Shown here: positions 5,780 through 35,141 of the stretch, piece by piece
How positions within the stretch are numbered: the stretch's first letter is position 1
How the letters are laid out: each line of letters begins with the position of its first letter
NCBI GenBank assembly: GCA_050124775.1
Contig: JASFEP010000003.1
Coordinates: 1-41,097, forward strand
Length of the DNA stretch: 41,097 bases
From: Candidatus Aminicenantes bacterium
GTDB taxonomy: Bacteria; Acidobacteriota; Aminicenantia; Aminicenantales; Aminicenantaceae
Direction of reading: 5' to 3'
Notes under the pieces: generated by a model
What the model was told of the DNA's origin: nothing
Seen by the model: only the letters and a program-made list of their open reading frames with translations
Databases searched by the model: none
Program-made: the position numbers and the translations under genes

Positions 5780-6709
5780 TCATGCATCTCCGATCTCGCG
5801 GATAACACGACGGAGCAGCGCATACGTTTCTTCGACTCCTTTAACTGTCGTTGCCTTCGTTGCAAATTCGACTCCGGTTTTAGCCGCAGATAAGGGATCC
5901 TGCCCCTCCGCCAGATGCATTGCGGTCACTGCGCAGAAAACATCTCCACAGCCTGTTGTGTCCTCGATATTATCGATTCGGGATGGCAGTATGAAACACG
6001 CATCCTCCGGGGATAAAACCCACACGCCATCTTTTCCCAACGTGATGAACACAGCCTCGAGCCCCAGGTGGAATGCCTTCTCTCCGAAGCGCTTGATTTC
6101 TTCTCCGGAGATATCCTGTCCGATATGGCCTATGAGACAGCTTAATTCTGCCCTGTTGGCCTGAAGATAGGTCACCCCTTTGACCCAATCTTCCCAGGGT
6201 ATGTTCGCTAGATATGTCCTCGGAACACCCAGTTCTTTGGAGAGGACTAACGAATGAATATCCAGCCAGATAGGGCAATCGGCTGCGCCAACAATTTGAC
6301 GCCAGTCCCGGAGCGTGATATCGAATCCTGAATTGAGCACGGCAATAAGCATTTGTAGCCTGTCCATACTCTGGAGTATTCTATGAGGATTGAGAGGAGA
6401 CACAGCGGATTCAAGAATCTCTCTTCTCTCCCCCTCTTTTGGATAATGCAGTTGAACGTGATTTCCTGGGCCGGCAAAGATATGCAAGCCTGTTTGTTCC
6501 AGGGAGTGCCACCCTTCGGCAACTTTCTCGACAGGGTCCGCAAGATCTCTCCCAAGATGTGTAAAGAGAAAAACACTTTTTTTCATTGCCGAGAGAGCAG
6601 CCGCTTGATAGAGAATACCCCCGAGACCTCTGAAGATCTCTCCTTCATCCGAAGTGATCACATCATACGTGATCGTTCCGATCAAACCAATCCCGCTCTC
6701 TCCTCCCAT
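5780..6709 (-). CDS. PfkB/ribokinase-family carbohydrate kinase
   Basis: IGTITYD, GLGG, QANRAE, ITLGKDG and DTTGCGDVF motifs; start revised to ATG 6709. Confidence 0.9.
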   Translation of the reverse strand: MGGESGIGLIGTITYDVITSDEGEIFRGLGGILYQAAALSAMKKSVFLFTHLGRDLADPVEKVAEGWHSLEQTGLHIFAGPGNHVQLHYPKEGERREILESAVSPLNPHRILQSMDRLQMLIAVLNSGFDITLRDWRQIVGAADCPIWLDIHSLVLSKELGVPRTYLANIPWEDWVKGVTYLQANRAELSCLIGHIGQDISGEEIKRFGEKAFHLGLEAVFITLGKDGVWVLSPEDACFILPSRIDNIEDTTGCGDVFCAVTAMHLAEGQDPLSAAKTGVEFATKATTVKGVEETYALLRRVIREIGDA

Positions 6710-23657: not shown

Positions 23658-23901
23658 TCAATCAAATCCGATCGTAGGCATTTCGCGGTTGAAGGAAGGA
23701 CGTTGCTTTTTTATGTGAATCCCAAAACAGAGATGAGAAAACGAACGAGCCAAAAAATCAGAAATGCTATACAGGAGCGAGAATGTGTCCAAAAACTCCG
23801 GCACCTCCTCGCTAGAAGGTGAAAGAAGGATGGAGAGATGATAAAAACATGAAGAAAAATAAAATCAAAAGCAGAAGAATAACAAACATCTTTTTACTCA
23901 T
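23658..23901 (-). pseudogene. Small membrane-protein gene, apparently frameshifted (29-aa peptide as written; ~80 aa if one T is removed)
   Basis: ATG 23901 with AGGGGG RBS gives MSKKMFVILLLLILFFFMFLSSLHPSFTF* (stop 23812); the adjacent frame stays open to 23658; lies just downstream of a sigma54 promoter. Confidence 0.4.
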
Positions 23902-23985: not shown

Positions 23986-24001
23986 AGCAAAATTTATGCC
24001 A
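23986..24001 (-). promoter_or_regulatory. sigma54 (-24/-12) promoter
   Basis: TGGCATAAATTTTGCT on the minus strand (GG-N10-GC). Confidence 0.75.
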
Positions 24002-25942: not shown

Positions 25943-28900
25943 TCAGAATGTCAGTCGCAAACTGACTTTCACGACCCTGCTACCGTAGGCAGCAGTGATA
26001 TCGCCATAATTGCTATACCTTTTGAACACAGGATTTTCAGGATCCCTATAATCCAAATAGCCGCCTGGGTCTGAATCAATCTTATACCCGCTCCAGCCGA
26101 AAGCATTTAAAATATCGATATATCCTCCAAGAAGCAATGTATCCGAAATCCGGAATCTCTTTTCGATCCTGAGATCCAGAGTCGTCAGCGGCGCTGTACG
26201 CCTTGTTCCCACCTCTTCTGTGATCACTTGGTAACCCTGTCCCGGGAATAGATATCGCTTATCCTCTGGAATATAGACCCACACGCTCCTGGCCCATGGA
26301 GCACCTGACAGATGACTGAGGTAACCGCTGAGAATAAAATCCTGGGGGAGGATGATCGTGCTCTGGATCTTGATGTTCAGCGGCCTGTCGTAATCCAACC
26401 TTCCTTCAGGAAATATGAGGGAATTGGGTGTATCGTAATTCTGGGAGGCGCCGCCCGTCTCAGAGTATCGCCCTCCGATATTCCCCCATGCTTTGCTCCA
26501 AACCAGAGATGCGAGAATCTGCCATCTGTGGGACATTCTTTTATTGAGGACAAACTGAAGAGCGGCATATTTTCGGAAGCCCACATCCAGATTTGTGTAA
26601 AACCAGTGTCTGCCCCCTGGCGAAGTGGCGAGCTCTGCATAACAGAATGACGTCTTGTCGTCATCCGTACCGAACAATCCATCGTCTCCGGGATCGTTGA
26701 ACGTGAACTCCTCCCAGTAAGGACTGTCAGACCTGTAGCCCTTCCATGCTTGACTTTTGCCGAGTCCATAGTCGTTGACATCCTCGAAAATATTCGACTT
26801 ATTTTTGTAGATCAGCGTGATCCCAGCACTGAAACTCCTCGCCAACTCCCTCTCGATTCCCAGAGTGAACTCATCGGTGTATGGGGCCGATGACTCGGAA
26901 TCCAGCACACTTTCCAGGTCGTAAACGTAAGGGCTATCCGGCAGATCATAGATCTCGTAGCCGTCATCTGCATCTGGCAATTTGTTATAGTTTTCGTCGT
27001 ACCAGTACCAGGCCCCAACCCGAGGATAGAGGGGATTCAACGCGTTAAAGTACTGGACCATGAGATACTCGTTATACCTCGACCAGGATCCCCTGATAGA
27101 GGTTTTTCCATCTCCGAAAATATCGTATGAGAAGCCGATGCGCGGCGAAAAATGTGTCCAAGTCAGAATATTGCGGCCCTCGAATTCATAGGAGCCGTAA
27201 GGAGATTGCTCTCCCAGTCCTGGCAAAATTTGAAGGATTCCGTAGGGATCGGCGGTGGCCTCTTTGCTTTGCTTCGGAAAACGGCCTGTGCTGGTGTCGA
27301 AACGCAGGCCGAGATTTAGTGTCAGCCGCTCGTTGAGGGAGAGAGTATCCTGAAAAAAAGCGCCAAATCTTTTTTTAGAGTCTTCCTCGATGGAGGACGA
27401 GATAGTGGGCCCGCAAGTATAGATGGTAACAAATCCCCTGTTCGGTGAGAGAGATGTGGGGTAGGAATAAATATTTCCGTCAAAATAATCGAATCGCACG
27501 GGATTTCCTCTCCACCAATCCCATTTACTGGCGACCCATTCATATTCCAAGCCAACCTTGATCTCGTGGTTTGTTCCGAAAAGATCGTCCGCAAAAAGCG
27601 TAACCATCATAGATGGATTGAGTCTTTTTCGCGTATATTCTTCCTGAAACCTGGAATTATTCCGGTAGATTCCCCAATAACGGTCCCAGAATTGAGGGGC
27701 ATCCTCCAGGGCGTAATCACTGAAGGGCAAAGGAAAATAACGATAATTGTAACCTATCCTGATGTCCATGAAGTAATTCTGGCTCGTGACCCAATTCACC
27801 TGAAAGCTCAGGGTGTGACCCTTCTCTCCATCCCAACGCGATGTCGCAGTTCTATCCGTATAACTCGAAAGCCGATGCGTGTAGTAATCTTCGGTGATGT
27901 TCGCCAGATTATACATGCCCATAAGACGGATCTCGGGAGTGAGCTGGAAGGTCAATTTTCCAAAAATATTTGTCTCCTCATGAGGGCCTTGCTCCTGTGT
28001 GTACACCCGTTCACGGCTCATGATGGTGTCGTCCCAAGACACGAGATTGAAATCTTGTGTCCACGTGTAATAACGGCCGTTCGCAAAAAACCAGATGCGG
28101 TCTCTTGCAATGGGGCCGCCCAAGTACATCGAAATATCGCTCCAGGAGCTTCGCCCCATCGGCTTCTCCATTCCAATGGACTTGAGATCTTCCTGGCTTA
28201 TCAGGCTCTCGGTCATTGTGTCATTGAAATATTCTGCTGTGAAACCCCCATGGTAATCATTGCCCCCTGATTTTGTCACAATGTTCACGAATCCTCCGTC
28301 AGCCAATCCCACATCCGCCGGATGACCGTAAAGGCCAAATTCCACCTCTTCGTAAACATCGATATTGATATTCGTCATAGGATACATGACGACAGGGTCG
28401 TTGATAGTGACACCATCCACAGAATATTGGTTGCCCCGGACAGTCCCCCCCGAAATAAAAGAAGTTCTCCTGTAATCCACATTTTCAGACACAGCTCCGG
28501 GGATGGAGTTGAGAACATCATACAGGTCTCGCGACATAGGAATGTGATAAATAAAATCTCTGGCATAGTTGACCGACGTCTTCGACGATCTGACATCGAC
28601 AACAGGTGAAAAACCGACCACAGTGACATCCTCTTCCAAACCTCCCATTTCCATAACGATGGATACAGACAATGTTTTGCCGACATTCACGCGCAATCCG
28701 CTCCGGGTAACGCTTTTAAAGCCCAGCACCTCAAAAGTTAGCTCATAATCATCACCGGGGGGTAACGTCGGAAAGCGGAAAATACCCGTTTCAGTTGTGA
28801 CGAACCTCAAAGGGTAGGGCAAAGCTTTCCCCTCTATTTTGACCGTAACACCGGGAAGAGGTCGGTCTTCCACATCGACCACTTTTCCGATTACGGAGCC

Positions 28901-28984
28901 ATCCAACCTCTGTTGCCCAAAACCTGATGAGAGGCAGACGAAAAAAACACAAGCGAAACTGACAGCCAGATAAGATCGTCTCAT
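25943..28984 (-). CDS. TonB-dependent receptor, Oar-like, with N-terminal carboxypeptidase-regulatory-like domain
   Basis: Signal peptide; GKVVD...PLPGVTV, NQYSVDGV, VNIVTKSGGN, FQD..LTLNLGLRFD, SPRIGFSYD; terminal ...LRLTF. Confidence 0.92.
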   Translation of the reverse strand: MRRSYLAVSFACVFFVCLSSGFGQQRLDGSVIGKVVDVEDRPLPGVTVKIEGKALPYPLRFVTTETGIFRFPTLPPGDDYELTFEVLGFKSVTRSGLRVNVGKTLSVSIVMEMGGLEEDVTVVGFSPVVDVRSSKTSVNYARDFIYHIPMSRDLYDVLNSIPGAVSENVDYRRTSFISGGTVRGNQYSVDGVTINDPVVMYPMTNINIDVYEEVEFGLYGHPADVGLADGGFVNIVTKSGGNDYHGGFTAEYFNDTMTESLISQEDLKSIGMEKPMGRSSWSDISMYLGGPIARDRIWFFANGRYYTWTQDFNLVSWDDTIMSRERVYTQEQGPHEETNIFGKLTFQLTPEIRLMGMYNLANITEDYYTHRLSSYTDRTATSRWDGEKGHTLSFQVNWVTSQNYFMDIRIGYNYRYFPLPFSDYALEDAPQFWDRYWGIYRNNSRFQEEYTRKRLNPSMMVTLFADDLFGTNHEIKVGLEYEWVASKWDWWRGNPVRFDYFDGNIYSYPTSLSPNRGFVTIYTCGPTISSSIEEDSKKRFGAFFQDTLSLNERLTLNLGLRFDTSTGRFPKQSKEATADPYGILQILPGLGEQSPYGSYEFEGRNILTWTHFSPRIGFSYDIFGDGKTSIRGSWSRYNEYLMVQYFNALNPLYPRVGAWYWYDENYNKLPDADDGYEIYDLPDSPYVYDLESVLDSESSAPYTDEFTLGIERELARSFSAGITLIYKNKSNIFEDVNDYGLGKSQAWKGYRSDSPYWEEFTFNDPGDDGLFGTDDDKTSFCYAELATSPGGRHWFYTNLDVGFRKYAALQFVLNKRMSHRWQILASLVWSKAWGNIGGRYSETGGASQNYDTPNSLIFPEGRLDYDRPLNIKIQSTIILPQDFILSGYLSHLSGAPWARSVWVYIPEDKRYLFPGQGYQVITEEVGTRRTAPLTTLDLRIEKRFRISDTLLLGGYIDILNAFGWSGYKIDSDPGGYLDYRDPENPVFKRYSNYGDITAAYGSRVVKVSLRLTF

Positions 28985-28996
28985 CGCTAATCTCCC

Positions 28997-29035
28997 AAAA
29001 AAAAAGCTGTCGGGTTCACTGGAACACCCGACAGC
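28997..29035 (-). terminator. Intrinsic terminator directly upstream of the TonB receptor RBS
   Basis: GCTGTCGGGT-N10-ACCCGACAGC (10-bp perfect stem), then T9, then GGGAG and ATG 28984. Confidence 0.85.
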
Positions 29036-29210
29036 CTCTGTATTTTCAGTCAGCTGCTTAATCTGAATGATTCGTAAAATATCCTGCCAAATCCCTATGC
29101 CAAAAGCTTTCCCTTCTCTATTGGAAGACTCTTTGACCCTCTGGGTGAGCTGATCACAAAGCTTTTCGGCTCATCTATTGGCAGTATGTTTCACCCTTTG
29201 GTATTTCAAT
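28997..29210 (-). ncRNA. Candidate structured sRNA or attenuator leader (~215 nt), family not recognised
   Basis: Bounded by a sigma54 promoter and a terminator; 17-bp helix 29178-29194/29074-29090 encloses two hairpins; no long ORF. Confidence 0.55.
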
Positions 29211-29220
29211 TTTTTGGAGC

Positions 29221-29236
29221 AGCAAAAATCGTACCA
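29221..29236 (-). promoter_or_regulatory. sigma54 promoter
   Basis: TGGTACGATTTTTGCT; IHF-like TAACAATAACTTA at 29254-29266 (minus); UAS-like TGTAAA-ATTTG-TTTCAA at 29322-29338. Confidence 0.8.
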
Positions 29237-29495
29237 AATAAGGCGAAAAAATGTAAGTTATTGTTATAAAACAGGTTAGAAACTTTCCCTAGAGAGAAAA
29301 GAACCCGGATTATCCAAAAAATGTAAAATTTGTTTCAAAAAATTGAATTGATTCCTAAAAAATAGGCTGGATCCGCATAGAAATAGGGCAAGCTTTTGCA
29401 AAGTCGCCGAACCGTCGAAAAAAAAGGGAGATAAAACGGACCCCATGGAGACATTCATGCAGATGGGCAAAAAACCGAAAGGACAATCAAAGGAT

Positions 29496-29852
29496 TTAAA
29501 AGGGTTTTTTATCGAAGCGGATATTGTACCTCTTCAGCTTTTCGTTCAGCGTTGTGTATTTGATACCCAGGAATTTTGCTGCGCTTTTTTGACATCCCTT
29601 GCACTGCGAGAGGGCACGGATCAAAATACTCTTTTCCACACTGCCGATGAGTTCTTTGAAAGGCACTCTTTGCCGGATACAAAAATACTCAATGAAAAGC
29701 TCGAAGACCTCCTTACGAAAGGTTCTTTCTTTCCATTCATCGAGATACTCAGGGCTTATTTTTTCGACAGATTCCGTCTTAGAGTATGCCCTGCCGAGCG
29801 GCGCTCCAAGAGGGGGAAAAGTTTGGTCCGTCTGTAAATTTTCCGTAGCCAT
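29496..29852 (-). CDS. Stand-alone Fis-family HTH (HTH_8) protein
   Basis: VEKSILIRALSQCKGCQKSAAKFLGIKYTTLNEKLKRY; GGAG RBS. Confidence 0.85.
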   Translation of the reverse strand: MATENLQTDQTFPPLGAPLGRAYSKTESVEKISPEYLDEWKERTFRKEVFELFIEYFCIRQRVPFKELIGSVEKSILIRALSQCKGCQKSAAKFLGIKYTTLNEKLKRYNIRFDKKPF

Positions 29853-29865
29853 CGTATCTCTCCTT

Positions 29866-30057
29866 TTATCCCGTAAATTTAATTTTTTTCTTCACCTCTT
29901 CGGCCAACATGGGGAGACCATCTTGAATCTTGAGCCGATCGATCTCACCGAACCTTATGGATTCGCAGTATTTGATGAAGGAATACCAGGCGGGATGAAT
30001 GTATGTCATTCCGCTCGTCTTAATGCCTTCATCTAATCTGCGTATTCCATTCGGCAT
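29866..30057 (-). CDS. 63-aa conserved-looking small protein (YezD/DUF2292-like pattern)
   Basis: SIRFGEIDRLKIQDGLPMLAEEVKKKIKF; tightly packed between the REC and Fis genes. Confidence 0.7.
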   Translation of the reverse strand: MPNGIRRLDEGIKTSGMTYIHPAWYSFIKYCESIRFGEIDRLKIQDGLPMLAEEVKKKIKFTG

Positions 30058-30068
30058 ATCGTCTTTCC

Positions 30069-30464
30069 CTACACTCTCTTTTCATTACCGTGTTTCCCAT
30101 TCAAAAGATATTCAATGGAATGGTTGAGTGCATTGAGGTCCAAAGGCTTTACGAAAAAGTGGCCGATCGAAAGACGGTTCAATTCATCCATATCGATCAT
30201 ATCGGGAAAACCCGATATCAATATCGCCTCACCTTTGTATCCGGCTTCCCTGAACTTGGCGATCAATTCCAGCCCGCTTATATCGGGTAATTTCAAATCC
30301 GCGATGATAAGATCCACATTGGTTTTTTTGAACCGGTGCAAAGCTTCTTTCGGATCCTTTGCCAGATAGACTCTGTAATTATCATGGAGGATCATGAAGA
30401 AGGTCTTTCTGATGCTGTCGTCATCGTCTACGATCACAATTTTTTTCTCTTGCATTTTTGACAT
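30069..30464 (-). CDS. Single-domain response regulator (REC)
   Basis: IVIVDDD, LIIADLKLPDISGLE, ISG and FVKP motifs; start 30464 or 30497. Confidence 0.9.
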   Translation of the reverse strand: MSKMQEKKIVIVDDDDSIRKTFFMILHDNYRVYLAKDPKEALHRFKKTNVDLIIADLKLPDISGLELIAKFREAGYKGEAILISGFPDMIDMDELNRLSIGHFFVKPLDLNALNHSIEYLLNGKHGNEKRV

Positions 30465-30508
30465 CCTGAGTGAATTCTTCTCTCCTCCTTCAAACATTGA
30501 CTATTGTC

Positions 30509-30662: not shown

Positions 30663-31997
30663 CTAGATTTTTAGATCGTATTCTTTGATCTTTTTATCGA
30701 GTGTCGGCCGGCTGATCTGCAGTACTCTACAGGTTTTGGTCTTGTTCCCCTTCATTTCTGTGAGGACATGCTGGATATAGTTCATCTCTACATCTTTAAT
30801 AGGGACAAGTTCTCTTGGAAGGGCTTTTTTCTCACTTCCCTCGAGAGGCAAGTTCTCTTCGAGAATGACGTCCCCCTTCGCCAAAATGACGGCACGGGTC
30901 AAGGCATTCTCCAGCTCTCGAACATTCCCTCGCCATGTATGCTCCTTTAATATTTTCATCACCGGAGGAGGAACTTTCCTGACATTTTTTCGGAGCTGAC
31001 TGTTGATCTTCTCCAGCAGATAAGCGACAAGCTCCGGGATGTCCTCTTTTCGCTCACGCAAAGGAGGGAGATGAATCACCACAACCTTGAGGCGGTAGTA
31101 GAGGTCCTCCCGGAAGGTTCCTTTTTCGATCAATGCCCTCAGGTCCTGGTTTGTAGCCGCGATGATCCTTGCCTCTGTTTTGAGGATTTTTTCTCCCCCG
31201 ACCTTCATAAAATCCCGTGTTTCGATCACCCGCAGCAGCTTCGACTGAAGGCTCGGTGAAACATCCCCGACCTCATCGAGAAAAAGAGTCCCCTTGCCAG
31301 CGATCTCGAACTTTCCCTTTGTCTCACATACGGCATCGGTGAAGGCCCCCTTCACGTGCCCGAAGAGCTCGCTCTCCAACAGGGTATCCGTGATGGCGGA
31401 ACAGTTGATCACGATGAAAGGCTCGCGGTTATAAGGGCTGTTGTAATGGATGGCCTTGGCGACCAATTCCTTTCCCGTACCGCTTTCTCCCTGGATAAGC
31501 ACATTCGTACGGGTCGGAGCCACAGAACCTATCAATTTGAAGATTTCCCTCATCTGGGGAGAACGGCCGATGATATTATCGATGGTGTATTCTTTCTGTT
31601 TTTCTTCGACGAGATAGCTGAGCTTATCTTCCAGATTTTGAACTTGGAAAGCTTTGGCGACGGTAAGATCCAGCTCGACATGGTCCAGAGGCTTCACCAG
31701 GTACTCGAAAGCCCCCAATTTGATGGCATCCACCGTAGTTTTCATATCGTCGTAGGCCGTCATGATAATGATCGAAGCGTTTTTATTTTTTTCTTTGATC
31801 AATCTCAACGCTTCCAGACCATCCATGTCGGGCAGCCGGATGTCGAGTATAACGAGATCTGGATTACACAGATCATACTTTTCAAGACCTTCCTTTCCAT
31901 CCTCAGCCATCAGGACTTCGAACTTATCCTTGGCGAGATGGGAGGAGAGAGTTTTTCTGATTAAAGGATCATCATCAATGATTAAGATCGATTTCAT
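30663..31997 (-). CDS. NtrC/AtoC-family sigma54-dependent response regulator (REC-AAA+-Fis HTH)
   Basis: LIIDDD, LDIRLPD; GESGTGKE, ESELFGHVKGAFTDA, LFLDEVG, FREDLYYRL, WRGNVRELEN; C-terminal HTH; ATGA overlap with the kinase gene. Confidence 0.95.
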   Translation of the reverse strand: MKSILIIDDDPLIRKTLSSHLAKDKFEVLMAEDGKEGLEKYDLCNPDLVILDIRLPDMDGLEALRLIKEKNKNASIIIMTAYDDMKTTVDAIKLGAFEYLVKPLDHVELDLTVAKAFQVQNLEDKLSYLVEEKQKEYTIDNIIGRSPQMREIFKLIGSVAPTRTNVLIQGESGTGKELVAKAIHYNSPYNREPFIVINCSAITDTLLESELFGHVKGAFTDAVCETKGKFEIAGKGTLFLDEVGDVSPSLQSKLLRVIETRDFMKVGGEKILKTEARIIAATNQDLRALIEKGTFREDLYYRLKVVVIHLPPLRERKEDIPELVAYLLEKINSQLRKNVRKVPPPVMKILKEHTWRGNVRELENALTRAVILAKGDVILEENLPLEGSEKKALPRELVPIKDVEMNYIQHVLTEMKGNKTKTCRVLQISRPTLDKKIKEYDLKI

Positions 31998-33463
31998 TGG
32001 ACTTCCCCACAAGGAATAAGGATCTCGAAACACGCTCCTTTTCCTTCTTTGTTTATGATCCGGATGGATCCATTGTGCTGTTCCACGATTTTCTTGGCAT
32101 TGGCCAGGCCCAGCCCTATGCCGGCCGACTTTGTCGTGTAAAACGGTTCAAAAATATTGTCCCACTCGGTTTCAGCAATGCCTTTCCCGTTATCGGAAAT
32201 TTCTATCCTGATCTCTTTACCCGCCTCATTTTCCCTGAGTGAGAGGATGATTTCGATCTCACCTCCCTCTTCCAACTCTTCGTAGGCATTACGGAGGATG
32301 TTGACGATCACCAATCGCATTTTATCGCCATCCACATACACGGCCGGCAACCCCGACTGATAGTCCTTCTTGACTTGAATATTTTTCAGATCCAACGAGT
32401 CGGATACCATCTTGAGCGAACTGTCTATGACCTGATCCATGGGAAAGTCACAGAAATTTAGCTCGGAAACCCTGGTGAAGTTAAGCAGTTCCTTGATGAA
32501 ATTCTCGATATGCTCGATCCCCTCCTGAGTGATATCCAGATGTCCTTTTTCGATCTCCCCCCAACATTCGCTCTCGGCGACCTTTTGGACATTGAGTTTG
32601 ACCGATGTCAAAGGATTCCTGATTTCGTGAGCGATACTGGCCGATAAGCGCCCGATGGACGCCAGTTTCTCTGCATGGACCAGCTTTTTACTGGCTTCCT
32701 CCATCCGTTTCTTGGTAAGAAGAAGCTGTTCGCTCATCACATTAAAGCTTTGCGCAAGCCCACCGAGCTCATCGCGGGATGAAAGGTCGATCCTGTGAGA
32801 AAAATCACCCTTGGAGATCCTCACTGTCCCGTCCACCAATTTTTTCAGCGACGTGGTGATGCCCCTGGATAGCAGAATCGACCCGATAATGCCGACACAA
32901 AGTCCGAGACCTGCGATCAACACCAGCTTGATATGCGTATCTCTGATCTCTGCCCGTGCCTCCTCCATAGAAAGCCCGATCTTGACAGAACCCCACCTGC
33001 GAGGAGAGCCTTCGACATAGATGGGCGCTTCGATCTCCAGCACTCGCAAGATATTACCGATTTCTGGAGCCCTGAGCTCCCTTCTTTCAGAGAAGTAATC
33101 TCCTTCAAGTTCTCTTTCGGCGAAGTTGCTATTCTGGTAGATCTCTTTATAGGTTTTGATAAATTCATTCCCGGCAAAAGGAGAGTTGTTGGCATCATAA
33201 AACACGATGTAGATCAATTTTTCGTTGATCTGTTTTTCAATATTTTCCTCGGCACCTGCAACATCCCTGAAGACCACAAACTCGTCATAATTCAACTGGA
33301 TCAGATACTGTGCTTCCAGAAAACCCCTGCTGATTTGCTCTGAATGGATAGCACTCACTTCCCGTTTTTCGATGACGAAGAAGATCAGTCCTACGAGTAC
33401 AAAAAGCAAGAGAATGACGGCAAGAATAAATTTTGTCCGCAAGCTCATCAGCAATGGCCTCAT
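31994..33463 (-). CDS. Membrane sensor histidine kinase (2 TM, HAMP, HisKA, HATPase)
   Basis: DELGGLAQSFN (HAMP), AHEIRNPL, NILRNA, DNGKGI, FEPFYTTK and GLGL motifs. Confidence 0.95.
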   Translation of the reverse strand: MRPLLMSLRTKFILAVILLLFVLVGLIFFVIEKREVSAIHSEQISRGFLEAQYLIQLNYDEFVVFRDVAGAEENIEKQINEKLIYIVFYDANNSPFAGNEFIKTYKEIYQNSNFAERELEGDYFSERRELRAPEIGNILRVLEIEAPIYVEGSPRRWGSVKIGLSMEEARAEIRDTHIKLVLIAGLGLCVGIIGSILLSRGITTSLKKLVDGTVRISKGDFSHRIDLSSRDELGGLAQSFNVMSEQLLLTKKRMEEASKKLVHAEKLASIGRLSASIAHEIRNPLTSVKLNVQKVAESECWGEIEKGHLDITQEGIEHIENFIKELLNFTRVSELNFCDFPMDQVIDSSLKMVSDSLDLKNIQVKKDYQSGLPAVYVDGDKMRLVIVNILRNAYEELEEGGEIEIILSLRENEAGKEIRIEISDNGKGIAETEWDNIFEPFYTTKSAGIGLGLANAKKIVEQHNGSIRIINKEGKGACFEILIPCGEVQ

Positions 33464-33493
33464 TACTTTATACGTAGATAAATAATAATGTTT

Positions 33494-35092
33494 TTATTTA
33501 TCAAGCCAAATCTTTTTAGCGTCTAAGTAGTAAAATCCCAGCGAGGGATACTCCACTCCGCGAACATAGGGTTGAATGGCCACTCTGTTCTGGTGAGAAA
33601 ACAAAGGAATGGCCGGGACATCCTCGAACAACACCTCTTCGATCTTGTGGAAAAGGCCGATCCTTTTTTTCCAACTCCTCTCGACTTCTGCCATCTGCAA
33701 AAGATCATCGAGCTTGGGATTGGTGTATCCAAACACATTAAAAAGGGATTTGGAATGAAAAAGAGGGCGGATCATATCCTCAGGATCAGGAAAGCTCATG
33801 TTCCTCTCGACGAAAATCATGTAGGGGGCCTTCGTTTTATGTAATTCTTTGGGGGACTCATAGAAATTCAGACGGGAGTCGATGTTGAGATTCCTGAGTT
33901 GATCCCGCAATTCTCTATAAATTTTATGTTTTTCGTCTGTTCGCGGTAATTTAAAATATACGGTAACCCGAGGGAACCGATCATTCTCAGAAAAACCCTC
34001 TCTCTCCAGCATTTCCTTGGCTTTCACCAAATTAGAGGGTTCTCCTTCATGGGGTGGAAAAAATCCCGGCAAACTGGAAGGAATATAGTTATTCGTGGCA
34101 GTACGGAGATATTTTATATCTTTGGCCGCTTCGACGATCGACTGTTTATCAAAGCCCAAAGAAAGAGCCTTCCGCACCGACGCCCGATTCAGAGGAGGAA
34201 TCCTGCAGCTTAATCCCAGAAAATAATGTGTCATCGGTCCGTCCTCGTAGAGCTGAAACTCCGAATCGAGCAATCTTCTGGACAGGATGGGGATAGCATC
34301 GATCTCTTCGTTGTAGAAGTGATCGATGGTGAACAGGGAGCAGAACTCGATCCCGTCCAGATAGGGCGGGCCTGCGAAGTATTCGGGATTGCGTTTGAGA
34401 TGAATGCCCGCGATCTCGAGCCTTGTCGTCCTTACCCAAAAATCGAACATGAAGGGACCTGTCCCCGAAGGCCTGCGGAAAAAATCTCTTCCTTCTGCGG
34501 TGGCTTTTTCGCGAGGAAGAATCTTGCAAAAATTCATGCTCATCAAATAGAGGGCTGAAACAAAGGGTTTAGTGAGCTTCATCTTGAAGGTAAAGTCATC
34601 AACGACACTGTATCCTCTGACATGGTCGGATCTCCCCTCTCGAAAATCCGCTGCACCTTCCACCCGGTTGACGAAGAATTGATAATAAGGGGAATTCGAT
34701 TCCTTGTCGAGGATCCGCTCCAGAGAATATTTGACGTCGGCGGCATCAAGCACTTCTCCATGATGGAATTTAACCCCCTTCCGCAAATAAAATGTGTAGA
34801 CCTTTTTGTCCGAAGATATCTCCCAGTATTCGGCAAGAGCCGGCTGGATGTGAAGGTTCTTGTCCAATCCCACCAAGCCGTCATAGATCTGTTCGGAAAG
34901 AAAAATGAAGGAATTCGGGCTTATCGGGTCGAGCTCCGTCCTGTAGACATCAGTGAATGATTTGAGCCGGAAAATCCCTCCGTAGTTGGGTTGAATATCC
35001 TTGCGGATGCCCGCAGATCTGGAGAGAAGGGAAGGTCCGCCCAACAGGAATAAAAGGATCACTGCAAGGAGCCACGTCAACTTTCTAGACAT
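33494..35092 (-). CDS. Family 5 (peptide/nickel-type) ABC substrate-binding protein, orphan
   Basis: IYDGLV...PALAEYWEIS, YTFYLRKGVKFH, GTGPF, VRKALS and PAIPL motifs; signal peptide; start 35092 or 35104. Confidence 0.9.
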   Translation of the reverse strand: MSRKLTWLLAVILLFLLGGPSLLSRSAGIRKDIQPNYGGIFRLKSFTDVYRTELDPISPNSFIFLSEQIYDGLVGLDKNLHIQPALAEYWEISSDKKVYTFYLRKGVKFHHGEVLDAADVKYSLERILDKESNSPYYQFFVNRVEGAADFREGRSDHVRGYSVVDDFTFKMKLTKPFVSALYLMSMNFCKILPREKATAEGRDFFRRPSGTGPFMFDFWVRTTRLEIAGIHLKRNPEYFAGPPYLDGIEFCSLFTIDHFYNEEIDAIPILSRRLLDSEFQLYEDGPMTHYFLGLSCRIPPLNRASVRKALSLGFDKQSIVEAAKDIKYLRTATNNYIPSSLPGFFPPHEGEPSNLVKAKEMLEREGFSENDRFPRVTVYFKLPRTDEKHKIYRELRDQLRNLNIDSRLNFYESPKELHKTKAPYMIFVERNMSFPDPEDMIRPLFHSKSLFNVFGYTNPKLDDLLQMAEVERSWKKRIGLFHKIEEVLFEDVPAIPLFSHQNRVAIQPYVRGVEYPSLGFYYLDAKKIWLDK

Positions 35093-35141
35093 CTTGATTT
35101 CCAATTATGATAAAAGAACACACGTCTTAAGGCAAATAAAA

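Follow-up and report, generated by a model that had tools for sequence, protein, structure and literature searches.

A candidate sigma-54-dependent leader module with a conserved box and terminator precedes TonB-dependent receptor genes in Candidatus Aminicenantes and holds a MITE-derived insert at one locus

The window analysed here comprises 41,097 nt of a Candidatus Aminicenantes genome (assembly GCA_050124775.1, contig JASFEP010000003.1, positions 1–41,097), and all features described lie on its minus strand. At 25943–28984 it encodes a TonB-dependent receptor of 1013 aa with a CarboxypepD_reg domain and an outer-membrane β-barrel (PF25183, 2.2e-39; PF13620, 1.5e-14; PF00593, 4e-8), whose start codon is consistent with a signal peptide and with the N-termini of homologues. 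The leader of this gene is preceded on the same strand by a string of regulatory and transport genes, in the order family-5 solute-binding protein (33494–35104), histidine kinase (31994–33463; both genes together span 31994–35104), NtrC-type sigma-54 activator (30663–32033; receiver, AAA+ Sigma54_activat and HTH_8 domains; PF00158, 5.2e-67), stand-alone receiver protein of 142 aa (30069–30497; assigned by profile search) and Fis-type HTH protein of 118 aa (29496–29852; HTH_8, 1.6e-10). The last two are conserved neighbours of the leader module described below: homologues of the HTH protein (40–58% identity) are encoded just 5′ of it in other genera as well, and homologues of the receiver protein lie 5′ of the HTH gene in other genera, with 62–71% identity in seven loci and 42% in one. 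The first-pass annotation, a reading of the window made from its sequence, had connected the element with a two-component system, and the kinase and the NtrC-type activator beside it are indeed both part of the upstream gene string.

The activator gene is located 1.4 kb upstream of the leader's promoter, an arrangement preserved in two genomes of the same genus (G001 and G002). Their loci are fully syntenic with the window for solute-binding protein, kinase, activator, receiver, HTH protein, receptor and a transglutaminase (68–94% protein identity), and we regard their leaders, as judged from gene order and sequence, as true orthologues of the one studied here. The genome also encodes rpoN (contig C35). 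Two metatranscriptome runs yielded four contig pieces from 27800–30200, corresponding to 27972–28122, 29579–29744, 29876–30050 and 30010–30200; the leader is not among them.

The leader is preceded by a sigma-54-type promoter, TGGTACGATTTTTGCT, with −24 GG and −12 GC elements (29221–29236; motif TGGTAC-N5-TTGCT). The sigma-54 pattern matches the window twice, compared with 0.13 matches expected, and two matches were reached in none of 100 shuffles. In G001 and G002 the motif is invariant, and a similar one is found 5′ of 23 of 24 further modules. The sigma-54-type promoter read at 29236–29221 in the first pass is thus both conserved in the orthologues and above chance. The other match, TGGCATAAATTTTGCT, is situated at 23986–24001, just 3′ of the transglutaminase-like gene, and precedes a small hydrophobic ORF starting near 23900; no box–terminator unit of the kind described below is present there.

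Two putative enhancer sites lie further upstream. A 14-bp palindrome, TTCAA-N4-TTGAA (29334–29347), is positioned 111 nt 5′ of the start of the −24 element, and a second, imperfect pair of half-sites, TTACA-N4-TTGGA (29313–29326, read from the sequence), follows about two helical turns 3′ of the first. The imperfect pair takes the position of the −85 to −92 site of the relatives, but does not exactly fit the regular expression T[TC]CA[AT]-N4-[AT]TG[AG]A. Palindromes fitting this expression were detected at −106 to −114 and/or −85 to −92 in 22 of 24 receptor-type modules, and in none of five modules upstream of genes for ankyrin-repeat proteins (control: 115 of 2000 random 170-nt windows). Given this presence in receptor-type and absence from ankyrin-type units, the same box–terminator device appears to be used under at least two different activators. 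At the sequence level, −24 GG/−12 GC spacing, enhancer sites, an AAA+ activator and rpoN are all present, and the NtrC-type protein encoded at 30663–32033 is a candidate activator of the promoter. From the usual distance between −12 and +1, transcription is predicted to start near 29209, within a conserved leader start (29201–29220) that is near-identical in G001, G002 and the paralogous leaders of type B. Leaders of types A and B show ATG/TTG-AAA… mini-frames at the predicted transcription start, and the motif ATGAYNTAG(A), preceded by a purine-rich stretch, recurs in module spacers (L084, L095, L097, L101, L103 and G000 contig C205), where it reads as a start, one sense and a stop codon with a Shine–Dalgarno sequence of its own. 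These spacer mini-frames could be a leader mini-ORF, or chance occurrences in A-rich leaders.

The leader ends in an intrinsic terminator (28997–29039), composed of a 5′ arm (29039–29026), a 10-nt loop (29025–29016), a 3′ arm (29015–29006) and a T9 run (29005–28997). As an inverted repeat, its arms extend over 29044–29026 and 29015–28997, forming a stem of 13–14 bp with a predicted energy of −22.6 kcal/mol followed by U9. The G+C-rich hairpin, the U-run and compensatory changes expected of an intrinsic terminator were all found, and on this sequence evidence we take the terminator to be real and strong. It abuts the ribosome-binding site of the receptor gene, as had been claimed: the T9 run passes directly into the Shine–Dalgarno sequence GGGAGA (28996–28991), followed by the ATG at 28984–28982 (both elements within 28982–28996), with 12 nt between U-run and ATG. 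A terminator scan with a separate tool called no site here, which is explained by the hairpin's 10-nt loop exceeding the loop limit of that tool (3–8 nt). A sigma-70 scan returned two sites, against 1.2 ± 1.2 in shuffles. A separate promoter for the receptor, recognised in the first pass as one finding that would overturn its reading, was rejected, as no promoter-like site exists between U-run and ATG and both sigma-70 sites map 5′ of the terminator. With only 12 nt available and no such site in them, the receptor would hence be transcribed through the terminator only.

The strength of the hairpin is a general property of this leader type. A hairpin with U7–10 is present in all 30 modules for which the fold was printed, at −22 kcal/mol or stronger in 29 of them. 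Leader types A, B and C have inner terminator stems that bear no sequence relation to one another but remain complementary, and the outer stem is conserved; altogether, the stem sequence is conserved beyond the needs of a plain terminator.

No known RNA family accounts for the leader. As the first pass had anticipated, Rfam 15 gave no match at gathering score across the window, and a search of 28900–29500 at E≤10 returned only five matches, all at chance level and far below that score. The 231-nt stretch folds at −70.1 kcal/mol, versus −53.3 ± 4.4 for 200 dinucleotide shuffles (z = −3.86), none of which was as stable, and its minimum-energy fold includes a closing helix and the terminator. The helix is formed by two 17-nt arms (29194–29178 and 29090–29074) with 82% Watson–Crick complementarity; the 15 of 17 pairs reported for it hold once one G–U pair is counted. 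The imperfect internal repeat corresponds to a 28-nt direct repeat (29201–29174 and 29144–29117; 79% identical, spacing 57). Indeed, all sequence features recorded in the first pass, including helices, internal repeat, stem, U9 and GGGAG, were found on the minus strand. The UUCAG/CUGAA hairpin is likewise present, but is not conserved outside type A leaders. The fold is more stable than expected by chance, with the terminator and a repeat's hairpin arm, rather than any conserved aptamer, as the source of this stability.

The origin of that arm became apparent from comparison with relatives. In a DNA search, the two same-genus genomes matched the promoter and terminator ends of the query, but not its middle. 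In an alignment of the three leaders, conservation extends over the promoter, the initial ~20 nt of the predicted transcript, a box of sequence AGCAGCTGACTG, the terminator, the T-run and the Shine–Dalgarno sequence with its ATG, whereas G002 lacks ~123 nt (window 29200–29078) and G001 carries just ~35 nt between the same flanks. Which of the three sister genomes gained or lost sequence, and in what order, we infer from this one alignment.

According to these sequence comparisons, the middle of the leader is a genome-specific insertion of ~125–137 nt, in which the 3′ part of a MITE-like repeat is represented one and a half times, in degenerate form. The repeat has a variable hairpin arm, of which fragment A (29162–29200) contains the 5′ strand and some of the loop, with 25 of 37 positions equal to the consensus. 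Fragment B (29064–29161) covers the last ~95 nt of the repeat, running from the final portion of the core through the variable arm to CGAATCATTCA, a degenerate version of the 3′ terminal inverted repeat (TIR), with 66 of 99 positions equal to the consensus; in blastn, window positions 29158–29064 align with positions 125–219 of the repeat unit (76.8% over 95 nt, E = 6.8e-14). In G002, fragment B is absent except for a TIR-like end. Fragment A supplies the 5′ strand (29194–29178) and fragment B the 3′ strand (29090–29074) of the closing helix, and the two fragments thus explain both this helix, as a pairing of one arm's 5′ strand with another's 3′ strand, and the internal repeat.

The repeat itself is ~190–215 nt long, is bounded by 11-nt TIRs and has no coding capacity. 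In this genome, blastn returns 128 hits to it at E<1e-3. There are 41 near-full-length copies, the fold is conserved, and the core lies within 74 TIR-to-TIR spans with a modal length of 191–192 nt, some of which share an end; of 28 family genomes sampled, 23 contain the core. Bacterial MITEs with folding transcripts, such as ERIC, Correia/CREE, RUP and bcr1, typically insert into 5′ leaders and are co-transcribed. Like these, the insert matches the 3′ ~95 nt of a multi-copy, non-coding, TIR-flanked folding element; unlike intact MITEs, it is rearranged and fragmentary, comprising one and a half 3′ parts without the 5′ terminal repeat or the core. Its resemblance to the family is one of sequence similarity (~67% identity to the consensus, compared with 69–89% for true copies) and not of a complete element with both TIRs and a G+C-rich core, of which it retains no more than the 3′ part with a degenerate 3′ repeat. 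Most likely, the insert is a tolerated passenger, although it may have been exapted in this genome.

Similar footprints occur elsewhere. In a G007 leader (L080, contig C292), the spacer has an additional ~40 nt that include GTGAATAATCCAGG, a terminal repeat of the MITE standing alone, and a TIR-like 14-mer resembling it persists in the orthologous leader of G002. The stretch between promoter and box thus seems to have received the element, or kept its footprints, more than once. Rfam searches of five loci with repeat copies and six loci with related long leaders returned only tRNAs and chance hairpin matches. The TTGGCAG…TTTTATGAAT end of the repeat precedes a tRNA-Ser gene on contig C296, and we considered it as a housekeeping promoter, an idea rejected on the grounds that other tRNA genes have ordinary TTGACA-17-TATAAT promoters. 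Among the tRNA calls, ARAGORN reports a tRNA-Pyl at G000 contig C9 22633–22704.

What remains after removal of the insert is a module of recurring layout: enhancer, sigma-54 promoter, short unconstrained spacer, 12-nt box AACAGCUGACUU, A-rich linker, terminator, and a ribosome-binding site directly 3′ of the U-run. In the window the box occupies 29047–29058 (family consensus AACAGCTGACTT). Its GCTGAC is invariant in eight genus-level modules, and conservation of the box extends to 31 modules that represent many genera. Among the 31 modules in which a promoter could be recognised, 29 have a promoter-to-box spacer of 24–66 nt. The two exceptions are the present leader, with 158 nt, and a G007 leader bearing the footprint of a solo terminal repeat, with 103 nt. 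With this outlier length, the ~215-nt extent of the leader is particular to this genome; of the ~215-nt structured RNA first described, the stable fold stands and the length does not generalise.

A covariance model comprising box and terminator (R1), built from an alignment of eight genus units, matched 38 of 96 genomes of the family, representing 15 of 39 genera and including all seven genomes of the genus. At class level, matches were obtained in eight of 151 genomes, almost all of the same family. On metagenome contigs, 18 of 45 pattern matches proved to be further modules. A co-oriented gene begins within ~205 nt 3′ of 30 of 32 modules, the remaining two being located at a sequence end; this gene usually encodes a CarboxypepD_reg-type TonB-dependent receptor and, in one locus type, a secreted ankyrin-repeat protein. 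One locus (L091; G224 contig C71) has two R1 matches 1 kb apart, of which the stronger lies 5′ of a receptor gene and the weaker (51 bits, with a hairpin of only −12.9 kcal/mol) 5′ of a gene for an HTH protein. We found no literature linking Aminicenantes with sigma-54, and the matches listed from a literature search on sigma-54-dependent small RNAs, terminators and TonB-dependent receptors include no such leader as far as their titles and the opening parts of their abstracts tell.

The box also follows sigma-54 promoters in leaders without a terminator (G000 contig C219, G002 contig C302 and a G096 locus), suggesting that something recognises the box as such and that it may do something other than antitermination. 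At the first two of these (L079, G000 contig C219 ~6320–6480, and L077), the box is accompanied by CAGAGGC and preceded by a sigma-54 promoter, and the downstream gene encodes a 175-aa lipoprotein without a Pfam family. The pattern GCTGACTG-N3-12-AGAGGC occurs in 48 of 201 genomes of the order, with a backwards control also matching many; among the 31 matches listed from 30 loci, the box is combined with a sigma-54 promoter or a terminator in only five (L048, L062–L065), and the others listed look like coding sequence or chance.

The 5′ half of the box, AACAGCU, is complementary to GGCUGUU in the 5′ arm of the terminator. Across 31 units, 94% of alignment cells pair in this register, compared with 27–58% in slid registers. 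At least five of the seven pairs are possible in all 31 aligned modules, and on the side of the box the pair is kept in 18 of 21 changed cells. True covariation was not found for this helix: the arm is invariant in 31 genome and 18 metagenome modules, and shuffles reach the score of the actual alignment. The candidate antiterminator helix would have 6–7 bp and a loop of 15–16 nt.

A search of the genome for an antiterminator protein identified none. No match to the ANTAR family was obtained, a family that stayed silent in all 14 control genomes as well. The genome does encode an Hfq-like protein, whose score of 33.6 bits barely exceeds the cut-off. A second NusG-domain protein of 159 aa is encoded at G000 contig C144 7401–7655 (L113:1498–1977), directly 5′ of a gene for a DegT/DnrJ aminotransferase. 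Operon-specific NusG paralogues are usually encoded in just such a position beside a sugar aminotransferase gene; on account of this DegT context, the protein was discarded as an antiterminator candidate, a link to a polysaccharide operon being more likely.

Our preferred reading, which we consider probable though by no means settled, is that of a sigma-54 leader module with a terminator requiring box-dependent read-through, into which a MITE fragment was inserted as a passenger. As suggested by sequence and conservation, the neighbouring NtrC-type activator would bind the palindromes and fire the sigma-54 promoter, with transcription beginning near 29209. Most polymerases would halt at the terminator and release an RNA of ~215 nt here and of roughly 85–125 nt in relatives, and the receptor would be made from read-through transcripts only. 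Given the strength of the terminators, read-through probably needs help. The obvious candidate for this help is the box, which might act by pairing with GGCUGU of the terminator's 5′ arm or through some factor recognising both GCUG-containing segments. More tentatively, and with rather more doubt than confidence, we entertain a broader version: promoter, box and terminator might constitute an undescribed portable sigma-54-coupled attenuator whose box is read by some protein or RNA factor, which serves at least two regulons (TonB-dependent receptors and the secreted ankyrin-repeat protein), whose terminated products may double as small RNAs, and whose spacer is a recurrent MITE landing site.

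The closest worked-out precedent appears to be the nasF leader of Klebsiella oxytoca. According to PMC12591593 and PMC7496416, nasF combines a sigma-54/NtrC promoter and a leader terminator with antitermination by NasR: operon expression needs read-through of the leader terminator, which the ANTAR protein NasR relieves, giving two layers of control. With the Aminicenantes module, nasF shares an activator-dependent promoter of sigma-54 type, enhancer sites 5′ of it and, downstream, a leader with an intrinsic terminator. The Aminicenantes leader differs in lacking, before its terminator, the pair of small hexaloop hairpins of ANTAR-type leaders, the second of which overlaps the terminator there, in having a 6–7-bp helix with a 15–16-nt loop as candidate antiterminator, and in phylum and regulated gene.

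One alternative, put forward in the first pass, is a novel riboswitch, in which the three-way junction at 29194–29074 would be the ligand-sensing aptamer of a new class controlling the terminator. Its stable fold (z = −3.86), its place 5′ of a terminator and a transporter gene and the lack of a known-family match would all suit such an element. The junction, however, is missing from both orthologous leaders and from all other modules; it consists of dispersed-repeat fragments, its closing helix being the repeat's own variable arm, and comparison of homologous leaders uncovered neither conservation nor covariation. Neither a conserved, covarying aptamer domain nor a match to a described riboswitch class was found. 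Given the outlying length and the repeat origin of the spacer, an aptamer is thus unsupported: a ligand-sensing domain in the leader is very unlikely, and a new riboswitch built on this junction is scarcely credible. The first-pass observation is therefore confirmed and its interpretation partly supported: the three-way junction (~29200–29064) does not hold up as a functional domain, nor does the novel riboswitch, and the conserved core stands as a candidate attenuator or small RNA. An improbable, though more plausible, alternative is a constitutive and partial terminator, setting a fixed low ratio of receptor mRNA to initiations or insulating the gene from read-through of the upstream receiver/HTH operon, with the box serving another purpose, for example in RNase cleavage, in mRNA stability or as the DNA target of a regulator. 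Boxes without a terminator in other sigma-54 leaders fit this idea, as do the failure to find an antiterminator protein (the ANTAR search being empty here and silent in control genomes too) and the sugar-aminotransferase context of the sole NusG paralogue. Yet terminators of which 29 of 30 reach −22 kcal/mol or stronger, with U7–10, should permit little unaided read-through, an odd property for the only promoter of a conserved receptor. Moreover, every one of the 31 modules in the alignment allows the 5′ half of the box to pair with the arm of the terminator, and the stem is conserved beyond what a plain terminator needs.

The main rival to the attenuator reading regards the terminated RNA itself as the product, namely a sigma-54-dependent, multi-copy small RNA acting in trans with the box as its seed, the receptor being expressed by leaky read-through. 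Several sigma-54-dependent small RNAs are encoded beside NtrC-type activators, including Qrr1–5 (LuxO), GlmY (GlrR), CrcZ (CbrB) and NrsZ (NtrC); qrr1, glmY and crcZ adjoin two-component systems with such an activator, and the genes of all these RNAs stand alone and act in trans. The Aminicenantes module has much in common with them: a sigma-54 promoter, a predicted short RNA with a conserved unpaired stretch, paralogous copies and a two-component neighbour with an NtrC-type activator. The conserved single-stranded stretch, A-rich linker, strong terminator and long U-tail form a typical small-RNA architecture, several copies per genome occur under at least two enhancer types, and the genome encodes the borderline Hfq-like protein. 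No sequence or Rfam similarity connects the module with these RNAs. Unlike their genes, none of the 32 modules was seen standing alone, as 30 precede a co-oriented gene and two lie at a sequence end, and the checked copies are directly 5′ of that gene without another visible promoter. This strict linkage argues against a trans-acting small RNA as the sole role. The box also occurs in leaders lacking a terminator, and type A leaders leave no room for another promoter, making read-through obligatory, which likewise counts against this reading. On balance, we judge a trans-acting small RNA unlikely, if still worth serious consideration.

Further conserved leader features were noticed in relatives. 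In receptor loci of other genera (L089–L109, e.g. L089:1578–1740), the terminator is followed by 100–200-nt leaders with additional conserved blocks. One of them is a perfect Shine–Dalgarno-like sequence, AAAGGAGGTGA(G/T)AA, which lacks a suitably spaced start codon and which we take to resemble the STAB-SD mRNA stabiliser of Bacillus thuringiensis; others are a hairpin GGAGTGA…TCACTCC followed by AGGG, and a CCCTT…AAGGG hairpin before the real Shine–Dalgarno sequence. Rfam searches of six loci with long leaders of this type returned no match. Receptor paralogues without the terminator unit (L028–L037, L042) have a different conserved leader, in which a sigma-54 promoter is followed by AAGGGGGTGA and by two hairpins before the Shine–Dalgarno sequence, GTTCTCCC..ACCTTT…GGGAGAGGG and ATCCTGTGAAAGCAGGAT.

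Taken together, the analysis removes a false riboswitch candidate and illustrates that a repeat insertion is able to mimic a multi-stem aptamer when one sequence is viewed alone. What it leaves is a leader RNA motif, conserved within an uncultured lineage and as yet unannotated, in which enhancer-dependent sigma-54 initiation appears to be coupled to a leader terminator ahead of genes for outer-membrane uptake. The motif could join RNA family libraries and help define a regulon. If read-through is regulated, the nutrient-uptake receptors of Aminicenantes would be under two-step control comparable to that of nitrate assimilation in Klebsiella, with a different recognition element.
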